A stretch of DNA of 48,937 bases. Origin: Bdellovibrionota bacterium (GTDB lineage Bacteria > Bdellovibrionota_C > UBA2361 > OMII01). Below, one piece after another: positions 3,227-37,871 of this stretch; the first letter of the stretch is position 1; the number at the start of each line of letters is the position of its first letter. The position numbers and the translations under genes are program-made. The stretch is from positions 1-48,937 of the forward strand of contig JBIIYC010000001.1 in the NCBI GenBank assembly GCA_044347025.1, written 5' to 3'. Under the pieces are notes generated by a model. It was not told the DNA's origin, searched no databases, and worked only from the letters and a program-made list of their open reading frames with translations.

Positions 3227-3284
3227 TCGGAGCTCCAAGAGAGGTTCTGGATACGACCAGTGTGCGCTGAGCGTTTGCTTTCGT

Positions 3285-3472
3285 CCAGCAGGGTGGTGAA
3301 AAAAGGTTCCGTCGTGAGCATTTTGAGAGTTTAGGCGAAAGGAGGCCGAGATTCCGAAAAAACCGGAGGCGTATCCTCTAAGATACGCTGAGAATTTTTT
3401 CGGCGTCTCCAACGAAGTTGCAGCCAGACTATCAATATGCACAACAGAAAATCTTTTTCACCACCCTGCTCG
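3285..3472 (+). repeat. MITE-like near-palindromic repeat, copy 1
   Basis: Left end CAGGGTGGTGAAAAAAGG (from 3289) and right end CTTTTTCACCACCCTG (to 3468) are inverted repeats. The interior aligns with the copies at 20463 and 32931 (reverse complement). Flanks are CCAG / CTCG. Confidence 0.8.
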
Positions 3473-7118: not shown

Positions 7119-8936
7119 ATGAACATCCTTGGAATATCCGCTTTTTACCACGACAGTGCTGCGTGCCTTGTTTCTGATGGCAAGATAGTAGCCGCCGCTC
7201 AGGAAGAGCGGTTCACTCGAAAGAAGCACGATCCGGATTTTCCTAAGAACGCAGCAGCCTACTGCTTGAGGCAGGCTGGGCTCACCATCAAGGATGTTGA
7301 TTACGTTGCGTTCTACGACAAGCCCTTATTGAAGTTCGAGCGATTGCTTGAGACGTATCTGGCAACAGCTCCAGCCGGTTTTACATCGTATGCGCGGGCA
7401 ATGCCGTTGTGGCTCAAGCACAAACTGTGGATCCCCGACACTATCAAGACTGAGCTTGATTATAGCGGTGAGGTGTTGTTCACCGAGCATCATCAGAGTC
7501 ACGCTGGATCAGCGTTCTATCCATCGCCGTTTCAGGAGGCTGCTATCCTGACAATTGATGGCGTTGGAGAGTGGACTACTAACAGCTTAGGCGTTGGAAG
7601 AGGAAATCAGTTTTCAATCACTCGCGAGATTAAATTCCCCCACTCGATCGGTCTGCTGTATTCAGCATTTACCTATTTCACTGGCTTCAAAGTTAATTCG
7701 GGTGAGTACAAGGTTATGGGACTCGCCCCGTACGGCGAACCCAAATATGTCCAGCAGATCTACGATAATCTCCTGGATTTGAAGGATGATGGGTCGTATC
7801 ACCTCAACCTCAAATACTTTAATTACATGGCTGGTTTGTCGATGACGAATGAGGGCTTCGATAAGCTCTTTGATGGCCCGCGTCGAAAGCCAGAGAGCCC
7901 GCTCACGCAGCGTGAGATGGATCTCGCAGCTTCGATTCAGGTCGTTGTCGAAGAGACGATGATCCGGCAAGCTCGCTACCTTCAACGCGAGACGGGTCTG
8001 CAGAACCTCTGCATGGCAGGCGGTGTTGCCTTGAACTGCGTTGGTAACGGTAAGCTCCTTAAGAGTAACATCTTCAAGAATATCTGGATTCAACCAGCGG
8101 CAGGCGATGCCGGTGGCGCTCTGGGTGCGGCGCTCTGCACATGGTACGGATATCTCGGTAACCCGCGACACACAAACGAGCAGACCGACTCGCAGAAGCA
8201 ATCGCTCTTGGGTCCTGAGTTCTCTGACGAGGAAACGTTGGCGCAGTTGGCGCAGTTCGGTGCCGTTACGCGCAGAGTTCAGGGCGATGAGCTCTTTAAG
8301 GTAACCGCAGATATCCTAGCCCAGGAGAAGGTTGTTGGGTGGTTTCAGGGCCGTATGGAGTTCGGTCCTCGTGCACTCGGAAGCCGCAGCATCATAGGAG
8401 ATGCTCGGTCTACGTCGATGCAGGCGAACATGAATCTTAAGATCAAGTTCCGAGAGTCGTTTCGCCCCTTTGCGCCAGCTGTTCTGCGCGAAGATGTTTC
8501 GAAGTACTTCGACCTTGACTACGACTCTCCGTACATGTTGCTCGTAGCGCCGGTGGCGGAGTCGCGGCGTCTACCTATGACGACAGACCAGGAAAAGCTC
8601 TTTGGTATTGCGAAGCTCAATGTGCCAAAGAGCGACATCCCGGCAGTAACCCATGTGGATTACTCGGCTCGGATTCAGACGGTGGCTGCCACCCAGCACC
8701 CCACTTTTTACAAGTTATTATCGGCATTTAAGGCCAAAACCGGGTGTTCAGTCTTGGTCAATACTAGCTTTAACGTGCGGGGCGAGCCTATAGTATGTAC
8801 GCCGGCTGACGCGTATGCGTGCTTCATGCGAACCAATATGGATGCGCTCGTTGTCGGCAACATCGTGATGTTAAAAGAGGAGCAACCAAAGTGGCAGGAG
8901 CGAGAAGATTGGCGGACGAAGTTCGAGTTGGACTAG
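7119..8936 (+). CDS. Carbamoyltransferase, NodU/CmcH family
   Basis: MNILGISAFYHDSAACLVSDGKIVAAAQEERFTRKKHDPDFP is the canonical N-terminus of this family. The C-terminal VLVNTSFNVRGEPIV motif is present. The ORF track extends to 6939, but the family-typical start is the ATG at 7119 (alternative 7107). Confidence 0.9.
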   Translation: MNILGISAFYHDSAACLVSDGKIVAAAQEERFTRKKHDPDFPKNAAAYCLRQAGLTIKDVDYVAFYDKPLLKFERLLETYLATAPAGFTSYARAMPLWLKHKLWIPDTIKTELDYSGEVLFTEHHQSHAGSAFYPSPFQEAAILTIDGVGEWTTNSLGVGRGNQFSITREIKFPHSIGLLYSAFTYFTGFKVNSGEYKVMGLAPYGEPKYVQQIYDNLLDLKDDGSYHLNLKYFNYMAGLSMTNEGFDKLFDGPRRKPESPLTQREMDLAASIQVVVEETMIRQARYLQRETGLQNLCMAGGVALNCVGNGKLLKSNIFKNIWIQPAAGDAGGALGAALCTWYGYLGNPRHTNEQTDSQKQSLLGPEFSDEETLAQLAQFGAVTRRVQGDELFKVTADILAQEKVVGWFQGRMEFGPRALGSRSIIGDARSTSMQANMNLKIKFRESFRPFAPAVLREDVSKYFDLDYDSPYMLLVAPVAESRRLPMTTDQEKLFGIAKLNVPKSDIPAVTHVDYSARIQTVAATQHPTFYKLLSAFKAKTGCSVLVNTSFNVRGEPIVCTPADAYACFMRTNMDALVVGNIVMLKEEQPKWQEREDWRTKFELD

Positions 8937-12434: not shown

Positions 12435-14704
12435 TGTTCAGCACCGAGCTGGGTTTGACATTAGAGGCGGCATTTCGAGAGGCGGCATCGCGGCGGCATG
12501 CCTTTTTCTGCCTTGAACATCTTTTGTATGCCTTGAGCTTTGACGAACAGGTGATGGAGATCCTCCAACGAGTCGGTGTTAACTTACCAAATCTCCGCAA
12601 GGACCTTGAGAACTTCTTCGACAAGAACATGGAGATCGTTCCGGTACGAGGTAGTAAAAGTCTTGGAGCCGAGCCGGCCCAAACCCCAGCGGTACAGCGA
12701 GTGTTGCAACAAGCGATACTGCACGTGCGGTCAGCCCACAAGGATGTCATCACTCCAGCCGAGGTCTTGGTGGCGTTGTTCTCGGAGGAGGATTCGCATG
12801 CGGTGTACTTTCTAGCGAAGCAGGGGGTGTCTCGGTTAGACGTGCTTAACTTTATCGCTCACGGTATGGCGAAAAGTGGAGCGGAAGAATCTGAGGATCT
12901 CCTTTCTGACCTGGACGAGGACGTGGAAGAACGGGAATCCGTCAGGACTCATAATGGCTCTGCCTTGGGGCTCTTTACTGAGGATATAACCGCTGCTGCG
13001 AGGGCCGGCAAGCTCGATCCCGTCATAGGTCGCCAAGCTGAGATTGAACGGACGATAAAAATTCTGAGCCGCCGTCAGAAGAACAACCCCCTCTTTCTGG
13101 GAGAGCCAGGAGTCGGAAAGACAGCGATGGCGCATGCTATCGCCGACCGTATCGTTAACGGCGACGTGCCGGAGCAGCTCCTTGAGGCGGAGGTTTTTCT
13201 GCTCAACATGGGTAACCTTGTTGCAGGAACCAAATTCCGAGGAGAGTTCGAGGATCGAATTCGCAAACTGTTGGCCGAGGTCGCTAAGCGACCCAAAGCT
13301 ATTCTCTTTATCGATGAGATTCATACGGTTGTTGGTGCTGGAGCGACGGGTAACGGCTCTCTTGATGCAGCGAACCTTCTGAAACCGGCGTTAGCCTCCG
13401 GGGCGATTCGTTGCATGGGCAGCACCACACATGCTGACTACAAAAAGTCTATAGAGAAAGATCGCGCTCTGAGCCGCCGTTTCTCAACTATTGATCTCCC
13501 AGAGCCAAGTATCGAGGAGACCGTGGCAATACTTGAAGGCCTCAAAGGGAAATTGGAGGAGCATCACAAGGTTGTCTTCACGAGTAAGGCTCTGCGTGCG
13601 GCTGCGGAACTTTCGGCTAAGCACATCAACGACCGGTTCCTTCCCGATAAAGCGATTGATGTTATCGACGAAGCAGGCGCCGCTAACGGACTTCTTCCGA
13701 AAAACAAGCGCAAAAAAAGCATATCTGAGGAGCAGATTGAGGCGGTGGTTTCAGCCATTGCCCGAGTTCCGGTAAAGAACATCAGTGACTCCGATGAGAA
13801 CGTCCTCAAAAATTTGGCAACTAATCTCAAGAAAAAAGTTTTTGGCCAAGATGCCGCTGTTGAGTCGATCGCTCGTGCCATCAAGCGTAGTCGAGCGAGT
13901 CTGCAATCCGAAGCCAAACCGATCGGAAGCTTTCTGTTCGCCGGTCCCACAGGAGTAGGTAAGACCGAATTGGCACGGGCCTTGGCGCAAGAGCTCGGAA
14001 TCCACTTTCACCGTTTTGATATGAGTGAATTTCACGACAAGCATCTCGTCTCGCGATTCACGGGCGCACCTCCTGGATACGTTGGGTATGAAGAGGGTGG
14101 TCTGCTGGTCGATTTGGTTCGAAAGAATCCGTATGGCGTCATCCTTTTCGATGAAATTGAGAAAGCGCATTCAGATGTTTTTAATATCTTTCTGCAGATA
14201 ATGGATGACGCTTCAATTACGGATTCTCAGGGGCGAAAGGCCGATTTTCGTAACATTATTGTGATATTTACAACGAATGCAGGTTCTGAGAAGGCCGCTG
14301 CAATCGGCTTCGGCGCAGCTCAAGCAAGCGGCTTTCGAGACGCGGCTGTAAAAAGCCTCTTCAAACCTGAATTCAGAAATCGCCTCGATGAGACTATCTA
14401 TTTTAGCCCGTTACCACTCCCTGTGATCGTGCAGATCGTGGGTAAGTTTATTAAGGAGCTTGAGGGACAACTCACCGGTCGGAATATTACGTTTGATGTG
14501 AGTGCCGAAGCTCAAGAGTGGTTGGCTACCAAGGGGTTTGACGCTGTATTTGGCGCTCGCCCGATGGCGCGATTGATTCAAAAAGAGCTTAAAGACCCGC
14601 TGGCGGATGAGATCTTATTCGGCAAACTCAAGCATGGCGGTAAGGTTCATATTGACCTGAAAAATAGTCACCTGACGTTTCAGATCGCTCCTACGACGAC
14701 CTAA
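12434..14704 (+). CDS. clpA: ATP-dependent Clp protease ATP-binding subunit ClpA
   Basis: The ATG at 12434 overlaps the clpS stop (TAATG). There are two AAA+ modules (GEPGVGKTA, ILFIDEIH; GPTGVGKTE, VILFDEIEKAH) and a Clp N-domain, but no ClpB-type middle domain. Confidence 0.95.
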   Translation: MFSTELGLTLEAAFREAASRRHAFFCLEHLLYALSFDEQVMEILQRVGVNLPNLRKDLENFFDKNMEIVPVRGSKSLGAEPAQTPAVQRVLQQAILHVRSAHKDVITPAEVLVALFSEEDSHAVYFLAKQGVSRLDVLNFIAHGMAKSGAEESEDLLSDLDEDVEERESVRTHNGSALGLFTEDITAAARAGKLDPVIGRQAEIERTIKILSRRQKNNPLFLGEPGVGKTAMAHAIADRIVNGDVPEQLLEAEVFLLNMGNLVAGTKFRGEFEDRIRKLLAEVAKRPKAILFIDEIHTVVGAGATGNGSLDAANLLKPALASGAIRCMGSTTHADYKKSIEKDRALSRRFSTIDLPEPSIEETVAILEGLKGKLEEHHKVVFTSKALRAAAELSAKHINDRFLPDKAIDVIDEAGAANGLLPKNKRKKSISEEQIEAVVSAIARVPVKNISDSDENVLKNLATNLKKKVFGQDAAVESIARAIKRSRASLQSEAKPIGSFLFAGPTGVGKTELARALAQELGIHFHRFDMSEFHDKHLVSRFTGAPPGYVGYEEGGLLVDLVRKNPYGVILFDEIEKAHSDVFNIFLQIMDDASITDSQGRKADFRNIIVIFTTNAGSEKAAAIGFGAAQASGFRDAAVKSLFKPEFRNRLDETIYFSPLPLPVIVQIVGKFIKELEGQLTGRNITFDVSAEAQEWLATKGFDAVFGARPMARLIQKELKDPLADEILFGKLKHGGKVHIDLKNSHLTFQIAPTTT

Positions 14705-14949
14705 CGGAGATAGAGTGAATCGTTCGAGATGCTACTGGTAGTTTTGACGAAACAAGGCAAAGGAAAAAACGGACCTACCTTTGCTAAAGCTCTGTCGAGG
14801 CATCAACGATCCGCGATGCTCCGCAGTATTCGCGGAGTGGGACGTTCGCCGAAAGGTGCGGTACGTTAAGGCGCAATTTCGGCGCCTCGAGCGGGATCGC
14901 AGACAAACGAAACAAATGCTCCGCAGGAAATTATTTTGCACCGATCTAG
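14701..14949 (+). repeat. Degenerate copy of the MITE-like repeat
   Basis: It starts at CTAA, which contains the clpA stop codon, and ends at ...CAGGAAATTATTTTGCACCGATCTAG. The internal blocks AGTTTTGACGAAACAAGGC, CAATTTCGGCGCCTCGA and AAATGCTCCGCAGGAAATT align with conserved blocks of the copy at 20463. The terminal inverted repeats are eroded. Confidence 0.5.
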
Positions 14950-15153
14950 TAGCCTGCTGGTTGAATTAAGCTAGCTTCTGTGAGCGCCGACAGACGGGCC
15001 TTTTCGACACTCTCGCGACCGAGTTTCATGAAATAAACGGGAACGCAGAACTTTCGAACGTACTCTCAAGTAGAGGGCGAGGATGTATGGCGATTGTGTC
15101 AGATGGTGTCCGCGGAGGAGTACTCGCGCAAATGGGAGTAATGCAGCAGCGAG

Positions 15154-17184
15154 TTAATACGCTAGCTCGAAGATAAAACGCATGTAGCGGAGGTGAAATC
15201 CTTTTAGCGTAACAACAACTGGAGCATCTTTCGGTAGTGGCACAGAGGAGATCGGTCCATGCAGGAGGCCCCACTTCGAGAAGCCTTCGACTTCGACATA
15301 GGGCCGATCGCCATCGCCGGCCATTTTGGCGAAAAACACCCGATGTTTTACGTGTTCGAGCTTGTCGTGAAGCATCTCAAGGAAGCGCAGTTTGTAGTTG
15401 AGCTCATCACGTCGCCACCGTTTTTCATTCAGCGCACTTGCTCGTCGGTTCATCTCCTTCTCAGAAAGGAGCTCGCGTTTCTCGAATAGGGCTGCAAGCT
15501 GATATTGGTTTGCCAACCCTGAAGCATCCCGCGGCTTAATCTCGAGATACTCGTCGAGTCGCAGGCCGAAGTGTCCTTCGTTGCGGGTGGAGTACTGGGA
15601 CCGCAAGAGGTAGGTGTCGATCAGGGAGTTAAGGAGAGCTTGGGCATCGTCGGTGCTTCGAGCCTCAAGGCTGCGCAAGATGCCGGCGAACTCCGAGGGC
15701 TTTTCGAGGTCATCCACATGAGCAGGAATGCCGAGGGCGCCTAGTTTCTCTACAAAGCTTGTGGCAACCTGCGCGGAGGGCTTCGTATGTACACGGTATA
15801 TGGTGGGCGCCTTCCGATGCTCCCCTAAGTAGCGCGCGAGAATTCGCTTCGACTCAATCATTACCTCTGAGAGTACCTTGCTTGCAGCGTCCTCCCCCTC
15901 AATTCGGAGGAGCGATGGCTTCGATGTTCGACGTCGCTCCAAAATACGGGCCGCATCGGTTAGCGCAGCGAGACAAGGAGCGATTGTGTCGTTGCCAGTA
16001 GTGTCGAGAGGTTGTGTTGGATCGATATTTCGATGATTGATCACGTAGGCGGATCGCACCTTGTATCGTAACGAGTACTCGGTTCGGGGCTTGCCGGATG
16101 CTGATATATTCTGAACAGGTGTCAATCGTCCCTCAACTACCCACGCAGGACGGGTTGCGCCCTCAACGAAGGAAACCGGACCGTGAGCAAGGCTGGAGCC
16201 AAGTGTTGCTATTGATGTAGCCCGGCCGTAAATTGTAGCACCCACGCGAAGAGCAAACTTGTCGATGGTGCTTCCGGGCCTCACGAAATCGGTAGCGTTA
16301 ATGTAGGCAGCTCGAAAGTACAGAGAGCCTTTTTTCCACTCTGCATGGACCAAATCCTCCGCATCTCGGGTGCCGTGGCGATCAATCGCGACGAACGGGA
16401 GATCCGTTAGGTCCTCTCGCTTTGGGAGCCGTTGCCGGGCTGCCGTGCTACCGGCCGGCTGTCGCCCACACAGCTCCTCCATCATAACTTTGAGAGTCCC
16501 GCGAACGGAATCGGTCAGAACAGACCTATTTTTGAAACGATTCTTCAAATGACTCTGGATTCCCTGGTCTACCGAAACGCGACGGACAAGGATAGTGACC
16601 GACTCATATCGTTCATCCATTTTGCGGCGCCAGTCATCGAGCTTGTGCTCCAACTCTTCGGGGCAGTAGAGCTTTACAATGATAAGATCGAGGCGCCCCT
16701 TCTTTGCGAAAGGAACTTGGTAGTGATACGAGCGATGTAATTCAATTCCTACCGGGAGTTCTCGACCAATCTCCTCAATGATCGTTGCGGAGCTTGCACG
16801 AGTTGTGGGGCTTTTCGGTCGTGGCGAGAGCGATGGGAGAGGAGGAAGATTCGAGGGGGCCTCCTCCAGGGGTGGTAGCTGGGGCGCTCGTAGAAGATTA
16901 CTGGCGGCAAGGCGCCCCAAGATGTCTGGTAACCGGAGGCCCATATCGACGATGCGTGTCCCGTCCACCGTATCTGGCGTTGGAGCAGCGGTACTGGGGC
17001 TCTCACTGGGTGTCGGGGGATGGATGGGAGCGACTGGGGATGTACGGAGCGCATCACCGCTCGTAATCAGCGACAACCCACTGTCTCTGTCAGAAGGCAG
17101 AGTGCCGGTCGTCTGATTGTGGAGGGAACCTGATTTATCAATCATGTTCAACCCCAGTATATCAGGGTTTCTTGGAGTCCGCAC
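15154..17184 (-). CDS. Divergent RNB-domain (RNase II/R family) protein with a Pro-rich N-terminal region
   Basis: 676 aa. FVAIDRHGTRDAEDLVHA aligns with RNB motif I (FVTIDxxxTxDxDDAL). AAYINATDFVRPGSTIDKFALRVGATIYGR aligns with motif II. EGHFGLRLDEYLEIKPRDASGLANQYQL aligns with motif IV (HFGL...SPIRRY). The first 140 aa or so are Pro/Ser-rich and low complexity. Confidence 0.65.
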   Translation of the reverse strand: MRTPRNPDILGLNMIDKSGSLHNQTTGTLPSDRDSGLSLITSGDALRTSPVAPIHPPTPSESPSTAAPTPDTVDGTRIVDMGLRLPDILGRLAASNLLRAPQLPPLEEAPSNLPPLPSLSPRPKSPTTRASSATIIEEIGRELPVGIELHRSYHYQVPFAKKGRLDLIIVKLYCPEELEHKLDDWRRKMDERYESVTILVRRVSVDQGIQSHLKNRFKNRSVLTDSVRGTLKVMMEELCGRQPAGSTAARQRLPKREDLTDLPFVAIDRHGTRDAEDLVHAEWKKGSLYFRAAYINATDFVRPGSTIDKFALRVGATIYGRATSIATLGSSLAHGPVSFVEGATRPAWVVEGRLTPVQNISASGKPRTEYSLRYKVRSAYVINHRNIDPTQPLDTTGNDTIAPCLAALTDAARILERRRTSKPSLLRIEGEDAASKVLSEVMIESKRILARYLGEHRKAPTIYRVHTKPSAQVATSFVEKLGALGIPAHVDDLEKPSEFAGILRSLEARSTDDAQALLNSLIDTYLLRSQYSTRNEGHFGLRLDEYLEIKPRDASGLANQYQLAALFEKRELLSEKEMNRRASALNEKRWRRDELNYKLRFLEMLHDKLEHVKHRVFFAKMAGDGDRPYVEVEGFSKWGLLHGPISSVPLPKDAPVVVTLKGFHLRYMRFIFELAY

Positions 17185-17509
17185 GTAGGAAGCGTGCGTA
17201 GCAGATTACGGCTCGTCTAATAGAGGCAAATGCGATGTAATCAGTCGGCTAGTGAACGCGAGCTCCCGGTGTGCGCCGTGATAGATTGGTGTCCGCCTTC
17301 GGCCACAGGCGCTTGGGCGGGGAGGGTGATGACGTCGGACCCGTCGACAAAATCCTCAAGGTATCTCGAAGGATACACCTATCTGGGGTTTTCCATCTCC
17401 GCCTTGATTCATCTGAGCTCTTCGAACTCGCAGTAGGAGGCCTGTGTTCACTTGCTAGACCGCCGACATGGCGGTCGCATCTAACGTAAGACAGAGGAAA
17501 ATTGGTGTC

Positions 17510-18805
17510 ATGGCGCAGGAATCAATTAAAGCAACCGGATTAAAAGGAGCGCTGCTAGCATTCGCCGCCTCACCACGTTATGCGGTCTTAAAGAACCTCC
17601 AGGTGGGAAGGCTGCTCCCTGAAGAATGTGACTTCAACAGCCCTCTATCGGAATTGACACTCGAGTCCCTGGTTGAGCTTGGTAGCGCGCGAATCGTTGG
17701 TTCAAACGCGCTTACGTTACGTCAGGAAGCAACCCTAGTAGAGCTGTTGAGCTCTCTGGCGACTGCCGAGGAGGATATCGTGCAGCCGACGCAAGTTAGT
17801 GAGGTATCGGACCGGCCGCTAGCTACGGGAACCGAGAGTGCAGCGACTACCTTCGGCAGCGTTCAGCTGGAGCTTATGCTTCGTCAACGCCTGGAGGCCC
17901 TGGCGTCCCACGAACGATATGCGTCGATTTGCCGTCGGACATTGGGTGAGTACTGGGATCCTCGGTGGACGCCTGCACCCTTTGAACAGGCACTTCGTCT
18001 TGAGCAGCTCGTAAAGATGGACGTGACGGTCCTTTTTAAAAAGCGGACTGTCAATGATGATCGCGTCTTTCGTATATGCTGCGCACTCGAGCGTGCTGTC
18101 CAGTCCTTGGCGGTTCCGGCGATTGATGCGGCTGTCAGCTCACCAGAGTCTACGCCTGCAATTCGGGCGTACTCGCTGGACGCAGCAGGAGTGCAGGTTG
18201 ATGCCGTGGAGTGGCGTATTACCGATAGCCGTCTCTCGTCCCCGAAAAAAGCGATCGTTGAACTCATCGCTATCGCAGCACGGCATCAGCAAGACCCAAC
18301 CCTACATCAGTTATTACTGGCTGTAATTCGAACCTTTTCTCCAGATGAATTCATACAGATCGTTTTCGGAGAAGATCTCTCTCCAGAACTCACCAAACGG
18401 ATGAAGCAGGTGGTCGAGGAGATATTGCAGGCAGACCGGTGTCAACTGGTATCAGTGTTGCTGCAAGGGCCTGGAGTGCACATCACAGCGGTAGCGCATA
18501 TGTTATCAAGTGCTGCACGAAATGAAGGTGCTGTCATTGAGCTGCTTGCTGTACTGATCGCGAGAGCAATGGGTGCGCACCCCGTACAGTACAAAGGGGT
18601 GCTCTGCGAAGGATTCTGGACCCTTAATAGTGACCTCATAGGCCACCTAATCGCGGAAGCTCAGAAGTCCCCCAAGAAGCTTCCCCGCGGGCAAACTGAG
18701 ACGTCCTCATCACCTACGTTGGACCCGATCTTGCTTGATTGGATTAGGGCTCAATGCGGGCTCCGTAGTTCGGGCAAAAGGTGCCCACGAACAAAGCGTA
18801 AGTAG
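17510..18805 (+). CDS. Hypothetical protein (no domain recognised)
   Basis: ORF 17468..18805. The ATG at 17510 is preceded by AGAGGAAA 10 nt upstream. It is transcribed divergently from the RNB-like gene and ends in a basic C-terminal tail. Confidence 0.55.
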   Translation: MAQESIKATGLKGALLAFAASPRYAVLKNLQVGRLLPEECDFNSPLSELTLESLVELGSARIVGSNALTLRQEATLVELLSSLATAEEDIVQPTQVSEVSDRPLATGTESAATTFGSVQLELMLRQRLEALASHERYASICRRTLGEYWDPRWTPAPFEQALRLEQLVKMDVTVLFKKRTVNDDRVFRICCALERAVQSLAVPAIDAAVSSPESTPAIRAYSLDAAGVQVDAVEWRITDSRLSSPKKAIVELIAIAARHQQDPTLHQLLLAVIRTFSPDEFIQIVFGEDLSPELTKRMKQVVEEILQADRCQLVSVLLQGPGVHITAVAHMLSSAARNEGAVIELLAVLIARAMGAHPVQYKGVLCEGFWTLNSDLIGHLIAEAQKSPKKLPRGQTETSSSPTLDPILLDWIRAQCGLRSSGKRCPRTKRK

Positions 18806-18940
18806 CTAGAGCTGCGTCTGTGAACGGCTCCCCGGCGGCATTGTTTGCCGGGGCGTAGTCACATATGGCAAATGGGAGTGACTACGTTACATCTCATCAG
18901 CTGGCGGTTTTTGTAGCTGCTTCTTAAACGGAAGAGAACG

Positions 18941-20350
18941 ATGGCAGCCGTTACATTCTCAGGAATCGCCTCGGGGCTCGATACCCAAGCGTTAATCGAT
19001 GCTTCAACAGCAGCGTCACGGCAAACTCGGGTCAAACCGGATCAGGACCGCGTCACAAAACTTGAGGCAACAAATACTGCGCTCGAAGAACTCACGACCA
19101 AGTTAGAAACACTACGCACGAATTTAAGGGTGTTTACGACACTCTCCGGCGGAGGGGTCAGTAAAACTGGGACCAGCAGCAAAGAATCGGTGGTCTCCGC
19201 GAGTGCTACCAGCGCAGCCTCGAACGGAAGCTACTCGGTAACGGTCAACAATCTTGCCAGTAATCACACCTACAGTTTGAATACCACCTATGCCAGCACC
19301 GATAGCCCACTTCAAAGCTCGTTAACCGGCGCCGAGTCGGCCTCTGATCGAACAGTCACGTTTACGATCGGCACCGGAGCGGAGATGGAGACGGTCAACA
19401 TCGAAGTGCCAGATGGCACGTATACCCTTCAGCAGTTCGCTGATGCGTTCAACACAAGCAGCACTAAGGCCCGCGCCTCGGTCGTTAATACCGGCACGGC
19501 TGGAAGTCCTGCTTACAAGCTCGTCATTTCCTCTATATACGAGGGCACAGAGAAGGGAACGATTGCCCGCACTGCTCTCGGAGCGGGGCTGACTAACCTC
19601 ACTGGGTATGCCGAGAATGCAGCCAATGATGCATCGGTCACCATCGCGGGTATCGGCACGATCACTCGCTCTTCAAATAGCATCTCCGACATTATACCGG
19701 GAGTTACGCTCGCGCTAAATTCACTCGGGAGTTCGACCGTTAAGATATCAGAGGATGCAGCCTCAACGATCACTAAGCTCAAAGATGTTGTTGATTCCTT
19801 CAACGAAATAGTCACTTTCATTGCCGAAAATAATACCGTAACCAGAGAGGATAACGGTAAAGAGGTAAGTAATACCTTTGCGGCCCTCGCAAACACGCGC
19901 ATGGATGATAATGCGCTGCAGAATATTCGGGATGCATTTTCGAAGGCGGTAGCAAGTGGAGGAACCTCTGTCCGGATCCTGGCAGATTTGGGAGTTACAA
20001 CGCAACGAGATGGAACGCTCAAGTTCGACTCAGCGAAGTTCCAAGAAGCGCTCTCTGCCGAGTCTGCGAGCGTCAGCACAATCTTGAACTCTTTAGCTGA
20101 TACGACCGCAAATACCGGCGGAACTATTGATCAGTATACGCGATATAATGGTCTCCTGGGCGTCTCGGTAAACAGCAACAAGACGACTATCTCCGACCTC
20201 AACTCGCGTATTTCAGAAGCCGAGAAGGATATTCAGCGGCAGGCAGACGCCCTCAAAGCTCGCTACTCGCGACTGGAATCCCTAATGGGCAAGTTGCAGA
20301 GCCAACAGTCCTCGCTCACGTCTGCGCTTGCTGGGTTAGGAAAGCAGTAA
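18941..20350 (+). CDS. fliD: Flagellar filament capping protein FliD
   Basis: 469 aa. The N-terminus ITFSGIASGLDTQALIDA...LEATNTALEELTTKLETLR and the C-terminal coiled coil RYSRLESLMGKLQSQQSSL match the FliD N and C domains. The centre is Thr/Ser-rich. Confidence 0.85.
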   Translation: MAAVTFSGIASGLDTQALIDASTAASRQTRVKPDQDRVTKLEATNTALEELTTKLETLRTNLRVFTTLSGGGVSKTGTSSKESVVSASATSAASNGSYSVTVNNLASNHTYSLNTTYASTDSPLQSSLTGAESASDRTVTFTIGTGAEMETVNIEVPDGTYTLQQFADAFNTSSTKARASVVNTGTAGSPAYKLVISSIYEGTEKGTIARTALGAGLTNLTGYAENAANDASVTIAGIGTITRSSNSISDIIPGVTLALNSLGSSTVKISEDAASTITKLKDVVDSFNEIVTFIAENNTVTREDNGKEVSNTFAALANTRMDDNALQNIRDAFSKAVASGGTSVRILADLGVTTQRDGTLKFDSAKFQEALSAESASVSTILNSLADTTANTGGTIDQYTRYNGLLGVSVNSNKTTISDLNSRISEAEKDIQRQADALKARYSRLESLMGKLQSQQSSLTSALAGLGKQ

Positions 20351-20462
20351 CCGTATCTTCGATTCAATCGAAGCGAATTATTGGGATTGGTAGGATGTGA
20401 GTCCGCGCTTTGAAAGTGTCGTATGGTTCTGGCCGGTCTCTCGCCGACAACGTTGCGTGCCG

Positions 20463-20641
20463 CTAGCAGGGTGGTGAAAAAAGGTTCCGTAGTTAGCAAT
20501 TTGAGAGTTTTGACGAACCAAGGCGGGGACGACGAAAAAGCCGGAGGCGTGTCCTCTGAGGATTTTTTCGGCGGCTCCAACGAAGTTGCAGTCAAACTAT
20601 CGAAATGCGGAACAGGAATTCTTTTGTCACCACCCTGTTAA
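20463..20641 (+). repeat. MITE-like near-palindromic repeat, copy 2 (best-preserved archetype)
   Basis: CTAG-CAGGGTGGTGAAAAAAGG ... CTTTTGTCACCACCCTG-TTAA. The left half is largely the reverse complement of the right half. The apex CCGGAGGCGTGTCCTCTGAGG is flanked by CGAAAAA / TTTTTTCG. Confidence 0.85.
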
Positions 20642-20643
20642 GC

Positions 20644-21561
20644 TCAATTCGTAGCGCTGGGGTGCATCTGAGCCCGTGAGGTTGCTTCATCTGCGTTTGC
20701 TTTGACCATAACCAGTGGGGCTTCTTTCTCTGGAAGCGGCGAGAACGATTCGAGTTCGACCGTGACGCTTCCGATAAACACAGAGCTCACAATCTTGAGA
20801 ACCTCGCGCTCATTGTCATCGGATACGTAAATAAAGGCCTGGCGTAACTTCGACTTCGGCTTTGTGGTTGTCAGGTTTCGCACTTGAGGGGTAATAGCGA
20901 TTACCTTACGAGGCTCCCCTTTATACTCAATCGTGGTTCGTTCGACTGCCGTAAGAGAGATAAAGTAACGGCTCTTGCCGTTGAACACATCGAAGTGCTT
21001 CGTTTCGCCAATTGTCCAATCAAGACTGCGCGCTAGAAATGCGGCGCCTACTGGATCGAGCGTCATGTTATTCGGCTCGAATGATAGGTGTTTTTTATCC
21101 GGGTCAATGACCCCCTTGCCTCGAACCGCACTCACGGTGCCTTGCTCGGGCTCGAACGACATCTCGATAGTCTTCTGGCGTGAGTTTTCCCGATGGTCGA
21201 TCGAGAGGCTGATTGAGGTGAAGTCCTTCGCTGAGATAACCCCAATCGCGTCGTAGCGAAGCTTGTATAGGAGATCAACACCACTGTACGTCCTGGCAGC
21301 GGCATCGATGACATAGGTATCTCCGCGTCGTGATATCGTCACCGCACAACTTGCAGCGGTAATACCCTCCCAACCGACTGAGTACTCGTACACCCCAAGC
21401 TGGGGCCTAAAGCCCAGGGATCCAGGCTTATAGAAAGGCGTCGTCACCTTCACGAGATCGGGAGATATATAGTCGTCAGCGCGCACAGATTTCGAGCAGT
21501 AAAGAATGGTTGTTGCGACAACACCAAGAGCACAGACAGTGCTAAAAACCCCTCTCATCAT
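20644..21561 (-). CDS. DUF3108-like secreted protein
   Basis: 305 aa with an N-terminal signal peptide. The pattern YEYSVGWEGITAASCAVTI...YVIDAAARTYSGVDLLYKLRYD resembles the DUF3108 beta-barrel-like family. Confidence 0.6.
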   Translation of the reverse strand: MMRGVFSTVCALGVVATTILYCSKSVRADDYISPDLVKVTTPFYKPGSLGFRPQLGVYEYSVGWEGITAASCAVTISRRGDTYVIDAAARTYSGVDLLYKLRYDAIGVISAKDFTSISLSIDHRENSRQKTIEMSFEPEQGTVSAVRGKGVIDPDKKHLSFEPNNMTLDPVGAAFLARSLDWTIGETKHFDVFNGKSRYFISLTAVERTTIEYKGEPRKVIAITPQVRNLTTTKPKSKLRQAFIYVSDDNEREVLKIVSSVFIGSVTVELESFSPLPEKEAPLVMVKANADEATSRAQMHPSATN

Positions 21562-21662
21562 AGGACGTACGGTCTTGGCATTTGCGGGTAAATCGATTCC
21601 TTGATAGTAACGGTCCGTGATGTGTTGCGCCAGCAGGATTACCGACCTGTTCCTGTGGTGCC

Positions 21663-22295
21663 ATGTATGCAGGCAAGGTGCCGCAATTCAAACGACGTTG
21701 GTTTGGCGTGAGTCGATCTGTGTTTCAATCTGATTGTCCCGGTGTGTTTGGGATCGTATCTCGTATCGTGGCGGAGACAGAATGTGCTGCCGTGGCGAAT
21801 GCTTATGAGGTTGCGAAATCTCACGGCGGAAATGATGAGCACGGCACCAACCGAGAGCAGGGGGTCTCATTTAACCCCCGCCTCGGAAGAATACTCTCGA
21901 TTCTTATCCAGGATGGGCACGTGCACGAAGTGAATGTGCTTCGATGTGCGCTCTACGCCTCAACCAGCCTTAGTGAGGCAGATCTTCATCACGTTGTGCC
22001 CACCGAGTTGCTGGAGATGGTGCTCCAGGTGCGAAGTCGTCCTATGGCATCAGATGCGGCACGTGCCATTCAGCTCGCCTGGGCGCTCGATGGGGTTCGA
22101 CACCTTCACATGACCGATCTGCCTTTCGTTGAGCGGATGCGCTTGCTGAAGCACTACGACGACGTATTGCGATTACACGCGGTTTCCAAGTCTGCAGAGC
22201 CCCTCGTGATAAAATTGCGACACGCTATGACCTTGCAGCGCCGACGGCTCGCTTTTGATCAGGGCGCGGAGGAGTATCCGGGAGATGAAAACTAA
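21663..22295 (+). CDS. Hypothetical protein
   Basis: 210-aa ORF. Its stop codon lies 1 nt before the plsC ATG, which suggests co-transcription. No confident motif, and the start codon is uncertain. Confidence 0.45.
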   Translation: MYAGKVPQFKRRWFGVSRSVFQSDCPGVFGIVSRIVAETECAAVANAYEVAKSHGGNDEHGTNREQGVSFNPRLGRILSILIQDGHVHEVNVLRCALYASTSLSEADLHHVVPTELLEMVLQVRSRPMASDAARAIQLAWALDGVRHLHMTDLPFVERMRLLKHYDDVLRLHAVSKSAEPLVIKLRHAMTLQRRRLAFDQGAEEYPGDEN

Positions 22296-22296
22296 C

Positions 22297-23079
22297 ATGA
22301 CGTATTCAACGGCTCCTCAGAGGTCCTTGCGTCATCCGATACTAAGCTGGATGTGCACTATTCCTTATACAGTCGTTTTTATTCTTATATTGGTGCTGTT
22401 TCATCCCGTTCACTGTATTGCGGCACTGTTCGGTTCGCGAGCGCATAAGTGGACCCTCGAGATCATGAATCTCTGCATCATTTGGAATATACGGATTCTC
22501 ACGGGCGCTCGATACCGTGTGGTTGGGTCGGCCAACCTTCCCAAAGACCGGTCCGTCATTATTATCTCGAATCATCAGAGTATGTACGACATTCCGATGA
22601 TCATGTGGGCATGCAGAAGTAGAGAAGTTGGCTTCATTGCGAAGAAGGAGCTCGGGCGGTGGATTCCGAGCATCTCGTTTGCCCTTCGACGGCTTGGCTC
22701 CGTCCTGATTGACCGCAAGGATGCAGCCCAGGCTGTTCGTGACATTGAGGAGTTTGGGAGAGTCAAAGATATGCAGCGCCAGGTAGCGGCTATCTTTCCC
22801 GAGGGTACGAGGGCTCGGGACGGCGCACTGAAGCGATTTAAGAGCACCGGGGTCAACGCACTCGTACGAACGATGCCCAGCGCGATTATTCAGCCAGTGG
22901 CCGTGAAGGGTAACTGGGAGCTCCTCCGATACAATTTCTGGCCACTGCCGTGGGGAACTTCCATAGAGCTGGAGTTCTTGGAGCCCCTGGAGCCTAGCGA
23001 TATGAACGGGCGGGATCTGACAGCGGAGGTGGAAAGCCGAATTCGGGTCGCTGTTGAGGCGTTTCAGAGCCCTCTCTAG
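22297..23079 (+). CDS. plsC: 1-acyl-sn-glycerol-3-phosphate acyltransferase
   Basis: HX4D motif SNHQSMYDIP and the FPEGTRARDG motif. It has N-terminal membrane helices. The ATG at 22297 is preceded by GGAG. The ORF track start at 22255 overlaps the previous gene. Confidence 0.85.
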   Translation: MTYSTAPQRSLRHPILSWMCTIPYTVVFILILVLFHPVHCIAALFGSRAHKWTLEIMNLCIIWNIRILTGARYRVVGSANLPKDRSVIIISNHQSMYDIPMIMWACRSREVGFIAKKELGRWIPSISFALRRLGSVLIDRKDAAQAVRDIEEFGRVKDMQRQVAAIFPEGTRARDGALKRFKSTGVNALVRTMPSAIIQPVAVKGNWELLRYNFWPLPWGTSIELEFLEPLEPSDMNGRDLTAEVESRIRVAVEAFQSPL

Positions 23080-23133
23080 CAGGGAGGGGGTTTGCCTCGC
23101 TTCCCTAGGGAACCCTGTTCACCACCCTGCTAG
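23076..23133. repeat. 58-nt miniature derivative of the MITE-like repeat
   Basis: CTAG-CAGGGAGGGGG...GTTCACCACCCTG-CTAG. It keeps both termini and identical CTAG flanks, and the interior is deleted. The left CTAG contains the plsC TAG stop codon. Confidence 0.65.
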
Positions 23134-23210
23134 GAGGGATTCTTCCCGGAATTCGGCTCCTATACTTGAATTATGAAACGATTCCGCATAAACATAGAGG
23201 CTCAGGCTGG

Positions 23211-23293
23211 GCCGGAGTGGCGGAATGGTAGACGCGGCGGATTCAAAATCCGCTACCTGCGAGGGTGTGGGGGTTCAAGTCCCTTCTTCGGTA
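23211..23293 (+). tRNA. tRNA-Leu (anticodon CAA)
   Basis: GCCGGAGTGGCGGAATGGTAGACGCGGCGGATTCAAAATCCGC... with a long variable arm (class II). Anticodon loop TTCAAAA, T-arm GGGGGTTCAAGTCCCTT, and acceptor GCCGGAG/CTTCGGT with two G:U pairs. No encoded CCA. Confidence 0.8.
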
Positions 23294-23336
23294 TTTTCCC
23301 TGCTCAAGCCTGTTCATAATCAAGCAGAGACACCGC

Positions 23337-23813
23337 ATGGCGCAAACAGTATATTCGTCGCACAACGTTCCCGTTGTTCAGGGCGCACGCGTAGCCATCG
23401 TCATGTCCAAGTGGTACAGCGAGTACTCACACTCGATGATACGCAAGTGTAAGGAGGTTCTCGCAGCTGCACAGTGTCAGGAGCCAGAGGTACATGTCTT
23501 ACCGGGATGCCTTGAGATCCCACTCGCGGTTCGGCGCCTGGCCAAACGAGACCCGATGCTCGAAGCTGTGATCGTGTTTGGCGTAATTCTCAAAGGGGAT
23601 ACCTACCACTTCGATATGGTAAAAGACCTTACGATGAGCGGCCTTGAGAAGGTTATGTTCGAGTTTGATATCCCTGTCATCAACGAAGTGCTCCCGGTAA
23701 CTCGCATCGAAGATGCAGCTGCGCGTGCTGCAGATGATAACAAAAATAAGGGCATCGAAGCTGGACTAGCCGCAGCGGAGATTATCGCGTGGCGACGGGC
23801 GAATCCGTTGTAA
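23337..23813 (+). CDS. ribH: 6,7-dimethyl-8-ribityllumazine synthase
   Basis: The ATG at 23337 lies inside ORF 23265..23813, whose upstream part overlaps the tRNA. The pattern RVAIVMSKWYSEY...VLPGCLEIPLA...VIVFGVILKGDTYHFDMV...NEVL is typical of lumazine synthase. Confidence 0.9.
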   Translation: MAQTVYSSHNVPVVQGARVAIVMSKWYSEYSHSMIRKCKEVLAAAQCQEPEVHVLPGCLEIPLAVRRLAKRDPMLEAVIVFGVILKGDTYHFDMVKDLTMSGLEKVMFEFDIPVINEVLPVTRIEDAAARAADDNKNKGIEAGLAAAEIIAWRRANPL

Positions 23814-23829
23814 GCTGCCCGCGCAGACA

Positions 23830-25212
23830 TCACCGCTCTTTCTGGCAGGCGCGAAACATCTCTTCAGCGTGAATCTTCTGGCGGGAGTGCTCAACGATCG
23901 GATTGGGGTAATTTACGGAACGGGTGATGTCCTGTTCGTGCATCGTGTGAATATACCCGCTGGAGAGCTGCCTCAACTCAGGAATCCACTTTTTAATGTA
24001 GACACAGTCTGGGTCAAAGCGCTTCTGCTGAAGCCAGGGATTGAATATGCGAAAGTACGGTTGAGCGTCGCATCCGGTTGATGCCGCCCATTGCCAACTT
24101 CCGTTGTTTACCGACGGATCGTAGTCGGTGAGGTGTTGGGCAAAGAATGCTTCGCCTCGGCGCCAACTTATGTGGAGATCCTTTACGAGGAACGAGGCTA
24201 CGATCATGCGCACGCGGTTGTGCATAAACCCTGTTGAGACGAGTTCCCGCATGCCTGCATCCACTATCGGAAAACCAGTCTGGCCCTGGCACCACTTTTC
24301 AAATAGGGCATCGTCACTATTCCACTCAATTGCGTCGTAGATTGAGTGAAATGCATGGCCAAACACTTTCGGGAAATGCCACCCAATATGCGTGAAGAAA
24401 TCTCTCCAATAGAGTTCGCGGATGAGGGTGTGCGAGGCGCCAAGCTTGGCAGCTATGCAATGATAGACCTCGCGGATGGAAACGGTCCCAAATTTATTGT
24501 GGGAAGCCAGGAGAGTTGTACCACGAAGCGCCGGCAGATTTCGCTCGTCTTCGTAGTTCTTGAAATCTTTGATACTCGCGAGGATCTCGAGCGCTTTGCT
24601 GCGCCCACCAATACTCATCCGTTGGGGTGCTGAGTTCTGTGGCCAGAAATCCCTCGGAGACACAACCGCTCCTTTATATGACGTGCCACCGAAAGTGCCT
24701 TTGCGAACCGAAACCGGCTCGTTCACTGGGAGCTTCTGCGCCTTCTTGAAGAAAGGAGTATACACCGTATAGGGCTTGCCATCATCCTTGGCAAAGGTCT
24801 CCGGATCTACGAGCAAAAGATCCGTGCAGGCCGTAAACGGTATCGAAGCTCGGTCGCACACTGCCGCTAGAGCTTGGTCGCGCTTTATACTGAATGGCGT
24901 GTAGTCCTTGTTTACAAACACGGCCTCCAACGAGAGCTTTTGAATGAGGTTTTCCAAGACGTGAGAGGGGTCTCCGTGGAGAAACAAAAGCTTCCCGCCT
25001 CGAGCAGCGACCGCGTCCGCAAGCTCCTCAAGGCTTTCGATCATAAACGCTAATCCATTCACCGAACGGTAGGGGTGGGGCTGTACCTGAGCATCGTTAA
25101 ATATAAAACAGGTAACGACTTCTTCTGCATTTAGTAACGCGGCGTTAAGCGCGGTGTTGTCGTCGATTCGAAGGTCCCTGCGAAAGATGTGAAGCGCTCG
25201 TTTGTATTTCAT
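23830..25212 (-). CDS. phrB: Deoxyribodipyrimidine (CPD) photolyase / cryptochrome-photolyase family, class I-like
   Basis: ALHIFRRDLRIDDNTALN, WRDFF, TGFPIVDAGMREL, MHNRVRMIVASFL, NNGSWQWAASTG and PYFRIFNP. The ATG at 25212 is preferred. The ORF track start at 25233 is a TTG that overlaps the upstream gene. Confidence 0.9.
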   Translation of the reverse strand: MKYKRALHIFRRDLRIDDNTALNAALLNAEEVVTCFIFNDAQVQPHPYRSVNGLAFMIESLEELADAVAARGGKLLFLHGDPSHVLENLIQKLSLEAVFVNKDYTPFSIKRDQALAAVCDRASIPFTACTDLLLVDPETFAKDDGKPYTVYTPFFKKAQKLPVNEPVSVRKGTFGGTSYKGAVVSPRDFWPQNSAPQRMSIGGRSKALEILASIKDFKNYEDERNLPALRGTTLLASHNKFGTVSIREVYHCIAAKLGASHTLIRELYWRDFFTHIGWHFPKVFGHAFHSIYDAIEWNSDDALFEKWCQGQTGFPIVDAGMRELVSTGFMHNRVRMIVASFLVKDLHISWRRGEAFFAQHLTDYDPSVNNGSWQWAASTGCDAQPYFRIFNPWLQQKRFDPDCVYIKKWIPELRQLSSGYIHTMHEQDITRSVNYPNPIVEHSRQKIHAEEMFRACQKER

Positions 25213-32184: not shown

Positions 32185-32934
32185 ATGTCGAAGCGTCACG
32201 ACTCCCAGCGCCCGTGGCAATCCTTTTTGGTCATCCTTCTCTTAGTATCCCTGAATGCGTGTTCGATAAAGATTCAGCCGCGCAACGCCACCTTCGATAA
32301 GATCTCGGGCAGGGGGCCTCTAATCCTTGTCCTGAACGATGAAACTCAACCGACACAGCAGTTCCTGGCTGAGCACCTGAGCGGCAGCGAGTCCCTTCGC
32401 CTTTTGGTAAAAGAGCATGGGATGCCTGAGGGAATAAGTGTCGAGCGCGAGTTTCTCCAAACGACGATTCTCAGACTCTTCTATCCAAAATACGGGGAGG
32501 TCTATGTGTGTGCCCGACAAGAGGGGGCATGGGTTTTGGTCGGCATAGAGCCGCTCTCGGCTGCTGATGCTGAATCTCTCCGGCGGCAGCAATCCAAAGC
32601 TGCTCCCGTCGTCGCGGACTTGGGAGGGCAGCCTACGGTTGCGGCACCGGTGGCATACCACCCAGATGTGCGAGGACAGCTCAGGCCACCAGGGGTGGCT
32701 GGGGTGGCACGCTTAGAGTCGAGTCGATCGGGGTACGTACATCACGTGACGTTCGCCGGCGAGACCATGGAGGCCCTTGCAGACTGGTATACCGAAGATG
32801 CGCAGAACGCTATTCGGCTAGCTAAGGCGAGTCGTCTTTCTCCGGGGCAGGTATTGCGAATCGGCGATGCCGTTTCCATTCCAAGGGCGCTTATGCGGAA
32901 TCGTGATCCGTTTCCTGAAGCGATGGTGCCCTAG
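32185..32934 (+). CDS. Lipoprotein with a C-terminal LysM domain
   Basis: Lipobox LVSLNA|C. The C-terminal segment YVHHVTFAGETMEALADWYTEDAQNAIRLAKASRLSPGQVLRIGDAVSIP fits LysM. Its TAG stop lies inside the CTAG flank of repeat copy 3. Confidence 0.7.
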   Translation: MSKRHDSQRPWQSFLVILLLVSLNACSIKIQPRNATFDKISGRGPLILVLNDETQPTQQFLAEHLSGSESLRLLVKEHGMPEGISVEREFLQTTILRLFYPKYGEVYVCARQEGAWVLVGIEPLSAADAESLRRQQSKAAPVVADLGGQPTVAAPVAYHPDVRGQLRPPGVAGVARLESSRSGYVHHVTFAGETMEALADWYTEDAQNAIRLAKASRLSPGQVLRIGDAVSIPRALMRNRDPFPEAMVP

Positions 32935-33147
32935 CAGGGGAGTGAAAAAAGACCTCCCGTTGCACATTTCGATACTTTGACTTCCTCCTACGCCAAGGCG
33001 TCGGCGGACAAGGACTTCGTTCGAGCCGCCGAAAAAATCCCCAACGTATCTCAGAGTATCCGCCTCCGGTTTTTTCGTCGTATCCGCCTTGTTTTGTCAA
33101 AACTCTGAAAATGCTGATTACAGAACCTTTTCTCACCGCCCTGCTAG
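32931..33147 (-). repeat. MITE-like near-palindromic repeat, copy 3 (inverted orientation, longest intact copy)
   Basis: The reverse complement aligns end to end with the copies at 3285 and 20463. Both flanks are CTAG. Relative to copy 2 it carries an extra insert of about 30 nt (CCTTGTCCGCCGACGCCTTGGCGTAGGAGGAAG in element orientation). Confidence 0.85.
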
Positions 33148-33383
33148 GGACGCACGGCAAAACCTACTAGAGTCATTACTCTAGAACTCACACCGGGAAC
33201 GTCAACGTGCTCGTAAACGTACCCCCAAATATCGGATTTTTCGCTTCGGCTACATTTACGGGCACGTTCACGAGGCGGAATAGGCGGTTTTGCCTCGCCT
33301 CTCGAGCGACCAGTATCCGCTCTTCGGAGGGTTCCAATTGCCGGCTCTACCGGGTACCATCACCTCCGGGAGGAGCTACGCAC

Positions 33384-37793: not shown

Positions 37794-37871
37794 GTCGCCG
37801 TTCAAGGTGGTATCGCGTCAGTCAACAGCGTGTTAGCGCGTAATGTTGCAGCAAGGCGGTGAAAAAATCGT

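Follow-up and report, generated by a model that had tools for sequence, protein, structure and literature searches.

The question raised by this locus is why long, nearly palindromic repeats should be found on or beside the stop codons of protein-coding genes. The sequence analysed, here called the window, is the whole stretch of 48,937 nt (contig JBIIYC010000001.1 of assembly GCA_044347025.1, a Bdellovibrionota bacterium), and the repeat, here called family 1, is represented by an archetype copy at 20463-20641. A preliminary description of the window had listed five related elements, read them as non-autonomous MITEs (miniature transposable elements with inverted repeats) and suggested for them a domesticated role at gene 3′ ends. 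The analyses presented here bear out the MITE reading: given IS5-type termini, a YTAR target duplication and complete IS5-family insertion sequences (ISs) with the same ends and CTAG flanks, we put the probability that the repeat is an IS5-derived MITE targeting CTAG-like sites at about 0.9. All features of such an element that could be tested were found, save an autonomous partner in the same genome, and domestication is unsupported. The repeat is as such an ordinary element, found in a lineage of freshwater bacteria that has been little studied.

Copies of the repeat in the window and in related genomes

The 49-kb window contains three full copies of family 1, two decayed copies and a terminal remnant:

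3289..3468, + strand: full-length copy, 180 nt, 187.4 bits; flanks decayed, CCAG / CTCG
14705..14945, + strand: decayed copy, centre expanded and replaced; right half (14857-14942) E 2.4e-7
17253..17454, - strand: decayed copy, E 2e-12 and 4e-13 (profile); CTAG at 17249-17252 and 17455-17458
20467..20637, + strand: body of the archetype MITE, 171 nt; profile 175.9 bits, E 3e-52
23109..23129, + strand: right-end remnant, with TTCACCACCCTG at 23118-23129, between CTAG 23105-23108 and CTAG 23130-23133
32935..33143, - strand: copy of 209 nt with an internal insertion of ~28 nt; 144.3 bits

The archetype consists of CAGGGTGGTGAAAAAAGG...TCTTTTGTCACCACCCTG between the flanks CTAG (20463-20466) and TTAA (20638-20641); the stop codon of a DUF3108 gene (20644-20646, - strand) lies 6 nt away and that of fliD (20350) 116 nt before it. 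At its apex the archetype is a deletion variant, 10 nt short of the 181-nt family consensus, and the apex quoted in the preliminary description, CCGGAGGCG-N-CCTCTGAGG, is consequently not that of the family. The three full copies are 81-86% alike by repeat finding and score 144-187 bits against a profile of 41 copies, and a five-way alignment of the elements originally claimed comprised three good full-length sequences and two poor ones. Three of those five elements stand as full copies; in the one at 14701-14949 the right half alone is significant, the one at 23076-23133 is a composite, and the decayed copy at 17253-17454 had been missed. The termini first reported for intact copies, CAGGGTGGTGA(A)n / TCACCACCCTG, and the flanking tetranucleotides read as listed, and the terminal 15-mer CAGGGTGGTGAAAAA has nine window matches at up to three mismatches against 1.0 expected from shuffles. 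A further sequence, GCAGCAAGGCGGTGAAAAAAT at 37848-37868, in the 78-nt spacer before open reading frame (ORF) 37872-39020, resembles the terminal repeat with two mismatches in 15, either by chance or, possibly, as the remnant of a solo end.

Beyond the window, species-representative genomes (one per species) were scanned for AGCAGGGTGGTGAAAAA, which yielded at least 114 stretches, about half of them chance matches in unrelated taxa. The others cluster in freshwater metagenome-assembled genomes (MAGs) labelled Bdellovibrionota, 'Pseudomonadota', 'Proteobacteria' or 'delta proteobacterium', and the assemblies that bear family 1 are JBDLRS, JAIXQT, JBIKKT, JBIJBZ, CAIXKI, CAIVDM, JAULVA, JBEGVS, JALRCK and JAIXPR. 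A profile search of related genomes, as the preliminary description had proposed, gave at least 80 non-overlapping nhmmer matches in 60 sources (loci from 10 species-representative MAGs plus the window), with at least 23 and at least 28 matches in the loci of single MAGs. From 41 full copies (mean pairwise identity 91%) we derived the 181-nt consensus; since the profile scores ~200 bits in the forward and ~50 bits in the reverse direction, the repeat is an imperfect palindrome with a defined polarity. In megablast comparisons of the window with family-bearing loci the element alone matched, at 83-94% identity, and the flanking genes never did. Dispersed copies, as expected of a MITE, are present both in the window and in related MAG loci. 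Many contigs terminate within copies, as expected of a high-copy repeat. A scan of viral contigs with the 15-mer returned 96 stretches; the sequences around them were unrelated, and they were dismissed as chance matches.

The family and its IS partners occur across several species of uncultured freshwater bacteria, and the identity within the family (~91%) exceeds that of host proteins (~70-88%), which suggests, on sequence comparison, that its spread is recent or continuing; copies could serve as strain markers. In two of the loci (numbered with the prefix L), which come from two species, an orthologous gene (85% amino acid identity) has a copy 80-100 nt upstream of its start, in opposite orientations relative to the gene (L135 4151-4331, JBDLRS; L148 1608-1788, JAIXQT), which could reflect independent insertion in the same spacer or an inversion. 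The same CAGGGTGGTGAAAAA termini also bound other elements, in other lineages: a distinct 141-nt MITE in MAG CALOBG LOGT_bin.0044 (L149 1819-1959, L171 5231-5371, L192 4808-4948 and L154 2722-2862), which at L100 2326-2902 and L134 622-907 forms head-to-tail arrays with a 145-nt period and CTGCAG rather than CTAG junctions; a 142-nt element in L189; and a 123-nt deletion variant in L178.

Target duplication and insertion-sequence partners

The preliminary description had noted that most of the flanks fit YTAR, the target duplication of IS5-group transposases. Among 45 full copies the two flanks are identical in 30 (CTAG/CTAG in 22, CTAA/CTAA in four and TTAG/TTAG in four). As CTAG is its own reverse complement, only non-palindromic flanks can tell a duplication apart from terminal repeats that extend further outwards; these occur as direct repeats eight times and as an inverted repeat once, and so favour duplication. 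In addition, a correlation exists between the base beside one end and the outermost base at the opposite end (Fisher p 0.010 and 0.002). A 4-bp YTAR duplication is thus found, as had been proposed, and a 2-bp duplication may apply to a minority of copies.

The 2-bp alternative would make the repeat an IS630 / Tc1-mariner-style element, which targets CTAG, duplicates TA only, starts with G and ends with C. Flanks of the form CTAG/CTAG fit both models, and the pairs CTAG/CTAA (three copies), TTAG/CTAG (two) and TTAG/CTAA (one), as well as the CTAA/TTAG flanks of some full IS copies, agree with outer bases that are free to vary. The preponderance of direct over inverted non-palindromic pairs and the significant cross-end correlation nevertheless rule against a MITE of this type, as do the full-length partners described below, all of which encode an IS5-family DDE transposase and none an IS630 one, and the TTAG/TTAG flanks of the named element ISAzs10; we consider it very improbable. 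REP or REPIN elements (palindromes of ~20-40 nt that lack terminal repeats and target duplications and have a RAYT partner of IS200/IS605 type) were also rejected, given an element of 181 nt with 15-nt terminal repeats, 4-bp duplications and a DDE IS5 partner, though no search aimed at a RAYT gene was made.

Full-length ISs with the same termini, for which the preliminary description had recommended a search, do exist. Two complete ISs were recovered as terminal-repeat pairs at IS-like spacing: one of 1301 bp in an Oceanococcus MAG (L158 178-1478), with CAGGGTGGTGAAAAA identical at its ends, and one of 1479 bp in a Polyangiaceae MAG (L173 189-1667), flanked by CTAG/CTAG, with CAGGGTGGTGAAAAA exact at one end and two mismatches at the other. 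Each has a single ORF that matches Pfam DUF772 and DDE_Tnp_1 and the NCBIfam model NF033581, 'IS5 family transposase' (266 and 252 bits, cut-off 140). In a labelled relative, the Bdellovibrionota MAG JBILFA, tblastn detected a transposase homologue (L188) of which one end is preserved, ...TTTTTCACCACCCTG followed by CTAG, and the far end lost. A metagenome scan with the L188 protein led to a complete IS of 1367 bp (L215 589-1955), which reads CTAG, CAGGGTGGTGAAAAACG...GATTTTCACCACCCTG, CTA, has an intact ORF of ~370 aa and carries CAGGGTGGTGAAAAA identical at its ends; the truncated L188 protein shares 97% identity with its transposase. Identical 15-nt ends are thus shared by L215, L158 and L188, all with IS5 transposases. 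Of the 80 metagenomic relatives retained, 60 show CAGGnTGnTGAAAAA ends 1.16-1.6 kb apart, and CTAG/CTAG flanks were seen in 42 of these.

With these ISs, a clade of IS5-family elements 1.26-1.6 kb long, the MITE shares only the 15-nt ends and no internal sequence. The element itself is non-coding: ORFs overlapping copies have no Pfam match, and no copy is matched by the transposase in tblastn. Two further terminal-repeat pairs, from a search of family-positive loci for ends 0.4-4 kb apart, were discarded as parent ISs, namely a 2.7-kb pair in L167, which proved to be two unrelated partial copies around ordinary genes, and the pairing of window positions 20467-23129, whose ends belong to two different elements. 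At L188 1148-3264 the IS5-family copy breaks off beside an IS21-type IstB-like helper gene (1148-1930), with repeated 'AATTGTCGC' motifs at the junction; this looks like one IS inserted into another.

The closest named element, known from a plasmid annotation, is ISAzs10 (TTAG, CAGGCCGCGGAAAAAGG..., TTAG), listed by PGAP as 'IS5-like element ISAzs10 family transposase' on plasmid pAB510f of Azospirillum sp. B510; a literature search on ISAzs10 found no paper. Members of this clade have termini (CAGGnnGnGGAAAAAGG) similar to CAGGGTGGTGAAAAA and 4-bp TTAG/CTAG flanks, and their transposases share 47-58% identity with the enzymes of IS copies that have exact MITE termini; unlike the MITE, they are autonomous, 1.3 kb long and carry a transposase gene. 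The nearest parallel to family 1 that has been described is MITEPsy1 of Pseudomonas syringae pv. phaseolicola, which is derived from IS5/ISPsy2 and duplicates 4 nt, CTAG or YTAA (PMC3189936). Both are non-coding, mobilized (in family 1 presumably) by an IS5-family transposase and similar in target duplication, and the terminal repeats of MITEPsy1 (~18 nt) have a GGT..TGAAAAAG core that resembles family 1. MITEPsy1 differs in its length (100 versus ~181 nt), unrelated internal sequence and host phylum, and was trapped while transposing, whereas family 1 is known from sequence alone; family 1, unlike MITEPsy1, is palindromic over nearly its whole length, and its centre has the form A6-stem-U6.

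Presence or absence of the element at an orthologous site was observed for the archetype. The DUF3108 gene has many homologues, and the three relatives examined keep the DUF3108-fliD gene pair without the element: L213 (88% protein identity, spacer 12 nt), L211 (83%, 118 nt) and L212 (70%, 141 nt). The spacer in the window is 293 nt, and subtraction of the element plus one flank copy (175 nt) leaves 118 nt, equal to that in L211. The relatives' spacers are too diverged to pinpoint the exact unoccupied YTAR.

Placement at gene ends and the hairpin

The preliminary description had placed every copy near a stop codon, with three overlapping it. The overlaps are real: the ORFs that end at 14704, 23079 and 32934 stop within the flanking YTAR. 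The decayed copy at 14705..14945 is flanked by CTAA (14701-14704), which contains the TAA stop of a clpA-like gene, and by CTAG (14946-14949), and the copy at 32935..33143 lies between two CTAGs (32931-32934 and 33144-33147), of which the left one holds the TAG stop of ORF 32185-32934, which had been labelled a LysM lipoprotein and has no Pfam match at E<=0.001. Near the copy at 3289..3468, the stop codon of a DUF7790 gene (3483-3485, - strand) is 14 nt past the last base, 3468, and ~10 nt past the flanking tetranucleotide. The generalization to all copies fails at 17253..17454, which sits between the divergent starts of ORFs 15154-17184 (-) and 17468-18805 (+) and thus not on a stop codon.

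We then compared used with available sites. Copies were excised together with one flank, and all YTAR sites in 320 kb of element-bearing loci were classed, with the following result for CTAG:

CTAG overlapping a stop codon: 27 sites, 10 used
CTAG, other intergenic: 124 sites, 15 used
CTAG inside ORFs: 252 sites, 3 used

Stop-overlapping sites are used more often than other intergenic ones (odds ratio 4.3, p 0.004), in agreement with the earlier proposal of insertion into CTAG/CTAA sites that contain the stop codon. When every YTAR site is counted, 13 of the 40 mapped insertions are on a stop, with other copies in intergenic or 5′ regions, and of 25 classifiable contexts 14 are tandem, seven convergent and four divergent, so that with a window copy in a divergent promoter region the 3′-end placement is not strict. 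The stop-codon pattern is real but partial, involving about one third of the copies. CTAG itself is ~3-fold under-represented in the 320 kb (403 observed versus ~1240 expected from composition) and ~3.4 times denser outside ORFs.

In the mechanism that we suggest, a transposase of the IS5-family clade that has the same termini would act in trans, binding the two ends of the MITE and integrating it at 5′-YTAR-3′ with a 4-bp staggered cut, from which the 4-bp target duplication would result. YTAR holds TAG or TAA and the duplication would keep one intact copy on the gene side, so that an insertion at a stop codon would leave the protein unchanged, and insertions within genes or promoters would be lost to selection. 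Since CTAG is scarce and denser outside genes, copies would be expected to accumulate at, or just after, gene ends. Taken together, a target motif that contains TAG/TAA, a duplication that preserves the stop and the purging of disruptive insertions would be expected to produce the stop-codon pattern; the repeat may thus be a clean example of how a target motif that comprises stop codons and is depleted in genes can alone mimic purposeful stop-codon parking. The additional preference for stop CTAGs might be due either to the loss, by selection, of insertions in promoters or to a selected function at gene ends. Two copies differ in that the upstream ORF passes the TTAG flank, which is not in frame, and stops at a TGA in the terminal repeat GGTGGTGA, 11 nt in (L139 7779-7959 and L112 264-444), so that both the stop codon and the last few residues of the protein come from the MITE.

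Once inserted, the imperfect palindrome would fold into a long hairpin, whose A6-stem-U6 module may terminate or stabilize transcripts from either side, in our view as a by-product rather than as a selected function. The archetype is indeed predicted to form one long hairpin, as originally described; its folding energy is -74.1 kcal/mol for the + strand (z -6.3) and -58.9 kcal/mol for the - strand (z -5.1). For the consensus centre, GACGAAAAAACCGGAGGCGTATCCACTGAGATACGTTGAGGATTTTTTCGGC, the corresponding values are -19.5 and -16.6 kcal/mol (z about -4.3), and on either strand the stem is followed by U6. From these models it is plausible that the central hairpin is terminator-like on both strands.

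A stronger claim, close to that made in the preliminary description, is that the MITE origin was followed by selection for a bidirectional terminator, a 3′ mRNA stabilizer or an insulator. The fold of the consensus centre with its two U6 tracts would agree with this, as would the over-use of stop CTAGs, the flagging of the archetype apex by the terminator scan, the compensatory changes in three hairpin pairs and the occurrence, in one locus (L161), of a 42-nt family-1 core within an element with different ends. There are precedents, since SPRITE is terminator-like, ERIC is found at gene 3′ ends and Correia elements are processed by RNase III (PMC10969869). Against these observations, orientation relative to the neighbouring gene is unbiased (six same and nine opposite for stop-overlapping copies; five and nine for tandem contexts), four of the 25 contexts are divergent and a decayed window copy lies between two starts, copies in the window are losing flanks, termini and apex, and three relatives manage without the element at the archetype site. 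Moreover, the terminator scan flagged the apex on the + strand only and gave 11 sites for the region versus 9.2 expected, which is chance level, and the stem of the consensus centre has internal loops and ~8 strong pairs. Covariation is likewise weak: RNAalifold assigned 62 pairs, 97% of cells paired, of which six are compensated, mainly three hairpin pairs (columns 17/168, 41/144 and 48/138), yet the number of covarying pairs does not exceed that in shuffles (26 of 500 reach it) and the excess in cells goes back to changes that were passed on in subfamilies. A need for symmetry in transposase binding, or the repair of DNA hairpins, could account for such changes equally well. We therefore regard selection for a gene-end function as unlikely, though it is the rival to which we would give most weight.

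Even less probable, in our judgement, is a 'mobile terminator cassette', in which the target site puts a bidirectional hairpin on stop codons and host selection then retains the copies. If this were true, a transposon would supply much of the lineage's gene-end termination or insulation, and the core in L161, which lies between different IS5-type termini, would point to re-use of the module by more than one transposase.

The suggestion that the repeats are a structured non-coding RNA gene family not yet described (small RNA or cis-regulatory) and no transposon fares worst, and we attach hardly any credence to it. The strong folding of the + strand, the defined polarity (~200 versus ~50 bits) and the few compensatory pairs might be cited for it; the terminal repeats that match IS ends, the target duplications, the empty sites in relatives and copies in both orientations relative to neighbouring genes speak against it, and the transposon features suffice. 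The Rfam check that had been recommended, run over the whole window at the gathering score, returned three tRNAs and no match to the element, and at E<=1 copies 3289-3468 and 20467-20637 gave no Rfam match either; nor was a promoter-like site called in or beside the two copies within a scan of 14000-24000.

For the preferred reading, an IS5-derived MITE, some observations weigh on the other side. tblastn of the 49-kb window found no transposase, as the preliminary description had stated; the sole partner in a labelled relative (L188) is truncated, and the intact L215 comes from a 2-kb metagenome contig; the 181-nt family was not found in the two JBILFA loci examined. Fifteen of the 45 flank pairs are not identical, and some of these agree just as well with a duplication of TA inside CTAG; in a tally of the flank table the 4-bp and TA models have nine mismatches each, the preference for 4 bp coming solely from the cross-end correlation. 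The scan pattern included the flank 'AG' at one end, which biases that end but neither the other end nor the extra copies per locus. Genes were taken as non-overlapping long ORFs by a longest-ORF heuristic rather than from a gene caller, and the ~4-fold over-use of stop CTAGs is also what selection for a gene-end function would predict.

Correia (Neisseria), ERIC (enterobacteria) and SPRITE/RUP (pneumococcus) are, like family 1, abundant intergenic hairpin MITE-like repeats, often at gene 3′ ends. They differ in termini, target sites and presumed transposases, and the target duplication of Correia and RUP is TA. The effects described for these repeats concern termination, processing by RNase and the stability of mRNA (PMC10969869), and are experimental there. 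Should the family-1 hairpin act as a terminator, it would be added to the known MITEs that shape gene-end RNA biology, extending a known theme rather than introducing a new principle.

A second MITE family and effects on annotation

A second family of MITEs, with termini GGGAAGCGAGGCAAAACC(TACCC), CTAG flanks and heterogeneous interiors, was recognized in the window and in related loci:

23080..23104, + strand: family-2 right-end remnant, CAGGGAGGGGGTTTGCCTCGCTTCC; follows CTAG 23076-23079, which holds the TAG stop of an acyltransferase gene
33148..33302, + strand: family-2 MITE, termini GGACGCACGGCAAAACC ... GGTTTTGCCTCGCCTC
Elsewhere: L161 7169-7352; L198 5057-5209; L206 ~323-477; L167 2815-2871 (terminal repeats only)

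Its motif GGTTTTGCCTCGCTTCC(CTAG) recurs at 23088 and 33286 in the window and in related loci. The stretch 23076-23133, first taken for a short two-ended copy, has the order CTAG, family-2 end remnant, CTAG, family-1 right-end remnant, CTAG, and is made up of remnants of the ends of both families. The family-2 copy at 33148-33302 lies back-to-back with a family-1 copy, CTAG 33144-33147 being common to both. The L161 element mentioned above (7169-7352) is chimeric, with family-2 termini around a 42-nt centre ~90% identical to the family-1 core GAAAAACCGGAnGnGTATCCACTGAGATACnTnGAGGATTTTT, and no other case of this core inside family-2 termini was found in the searched loci.

Several gene calls are affected by these repeats. 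The cysS ORF (33207-34871) has its longest-ORF GTG start inside the family-2 MITE and its Pfam match begins at residue 98, and the true start is probably downstream of 33306. ORFs 2930-3442 (-) and 20263-20595 (-), of 110-170 aa, cross MITE copies and have no Pfam match, and in a second contig of the source sample (10.9 kb, JGI sample 3300059473) a 72-aa gene has been called in the DUF3108-fliD spacer; all three are probably annotation artefacts of the repeat. In that contig fliD is split between two gene calls, FliD_N of 125 aa and FliD_C of 311 aa, whereas the window has one intact 469-aa ORF (18941-20350); the split could be due to a frameshift, strain variation or assembly error. For annotation, then, the element matters in that it yields spurious ORF calls, shifts the apparent cysS start upstream and breaks assemblies.

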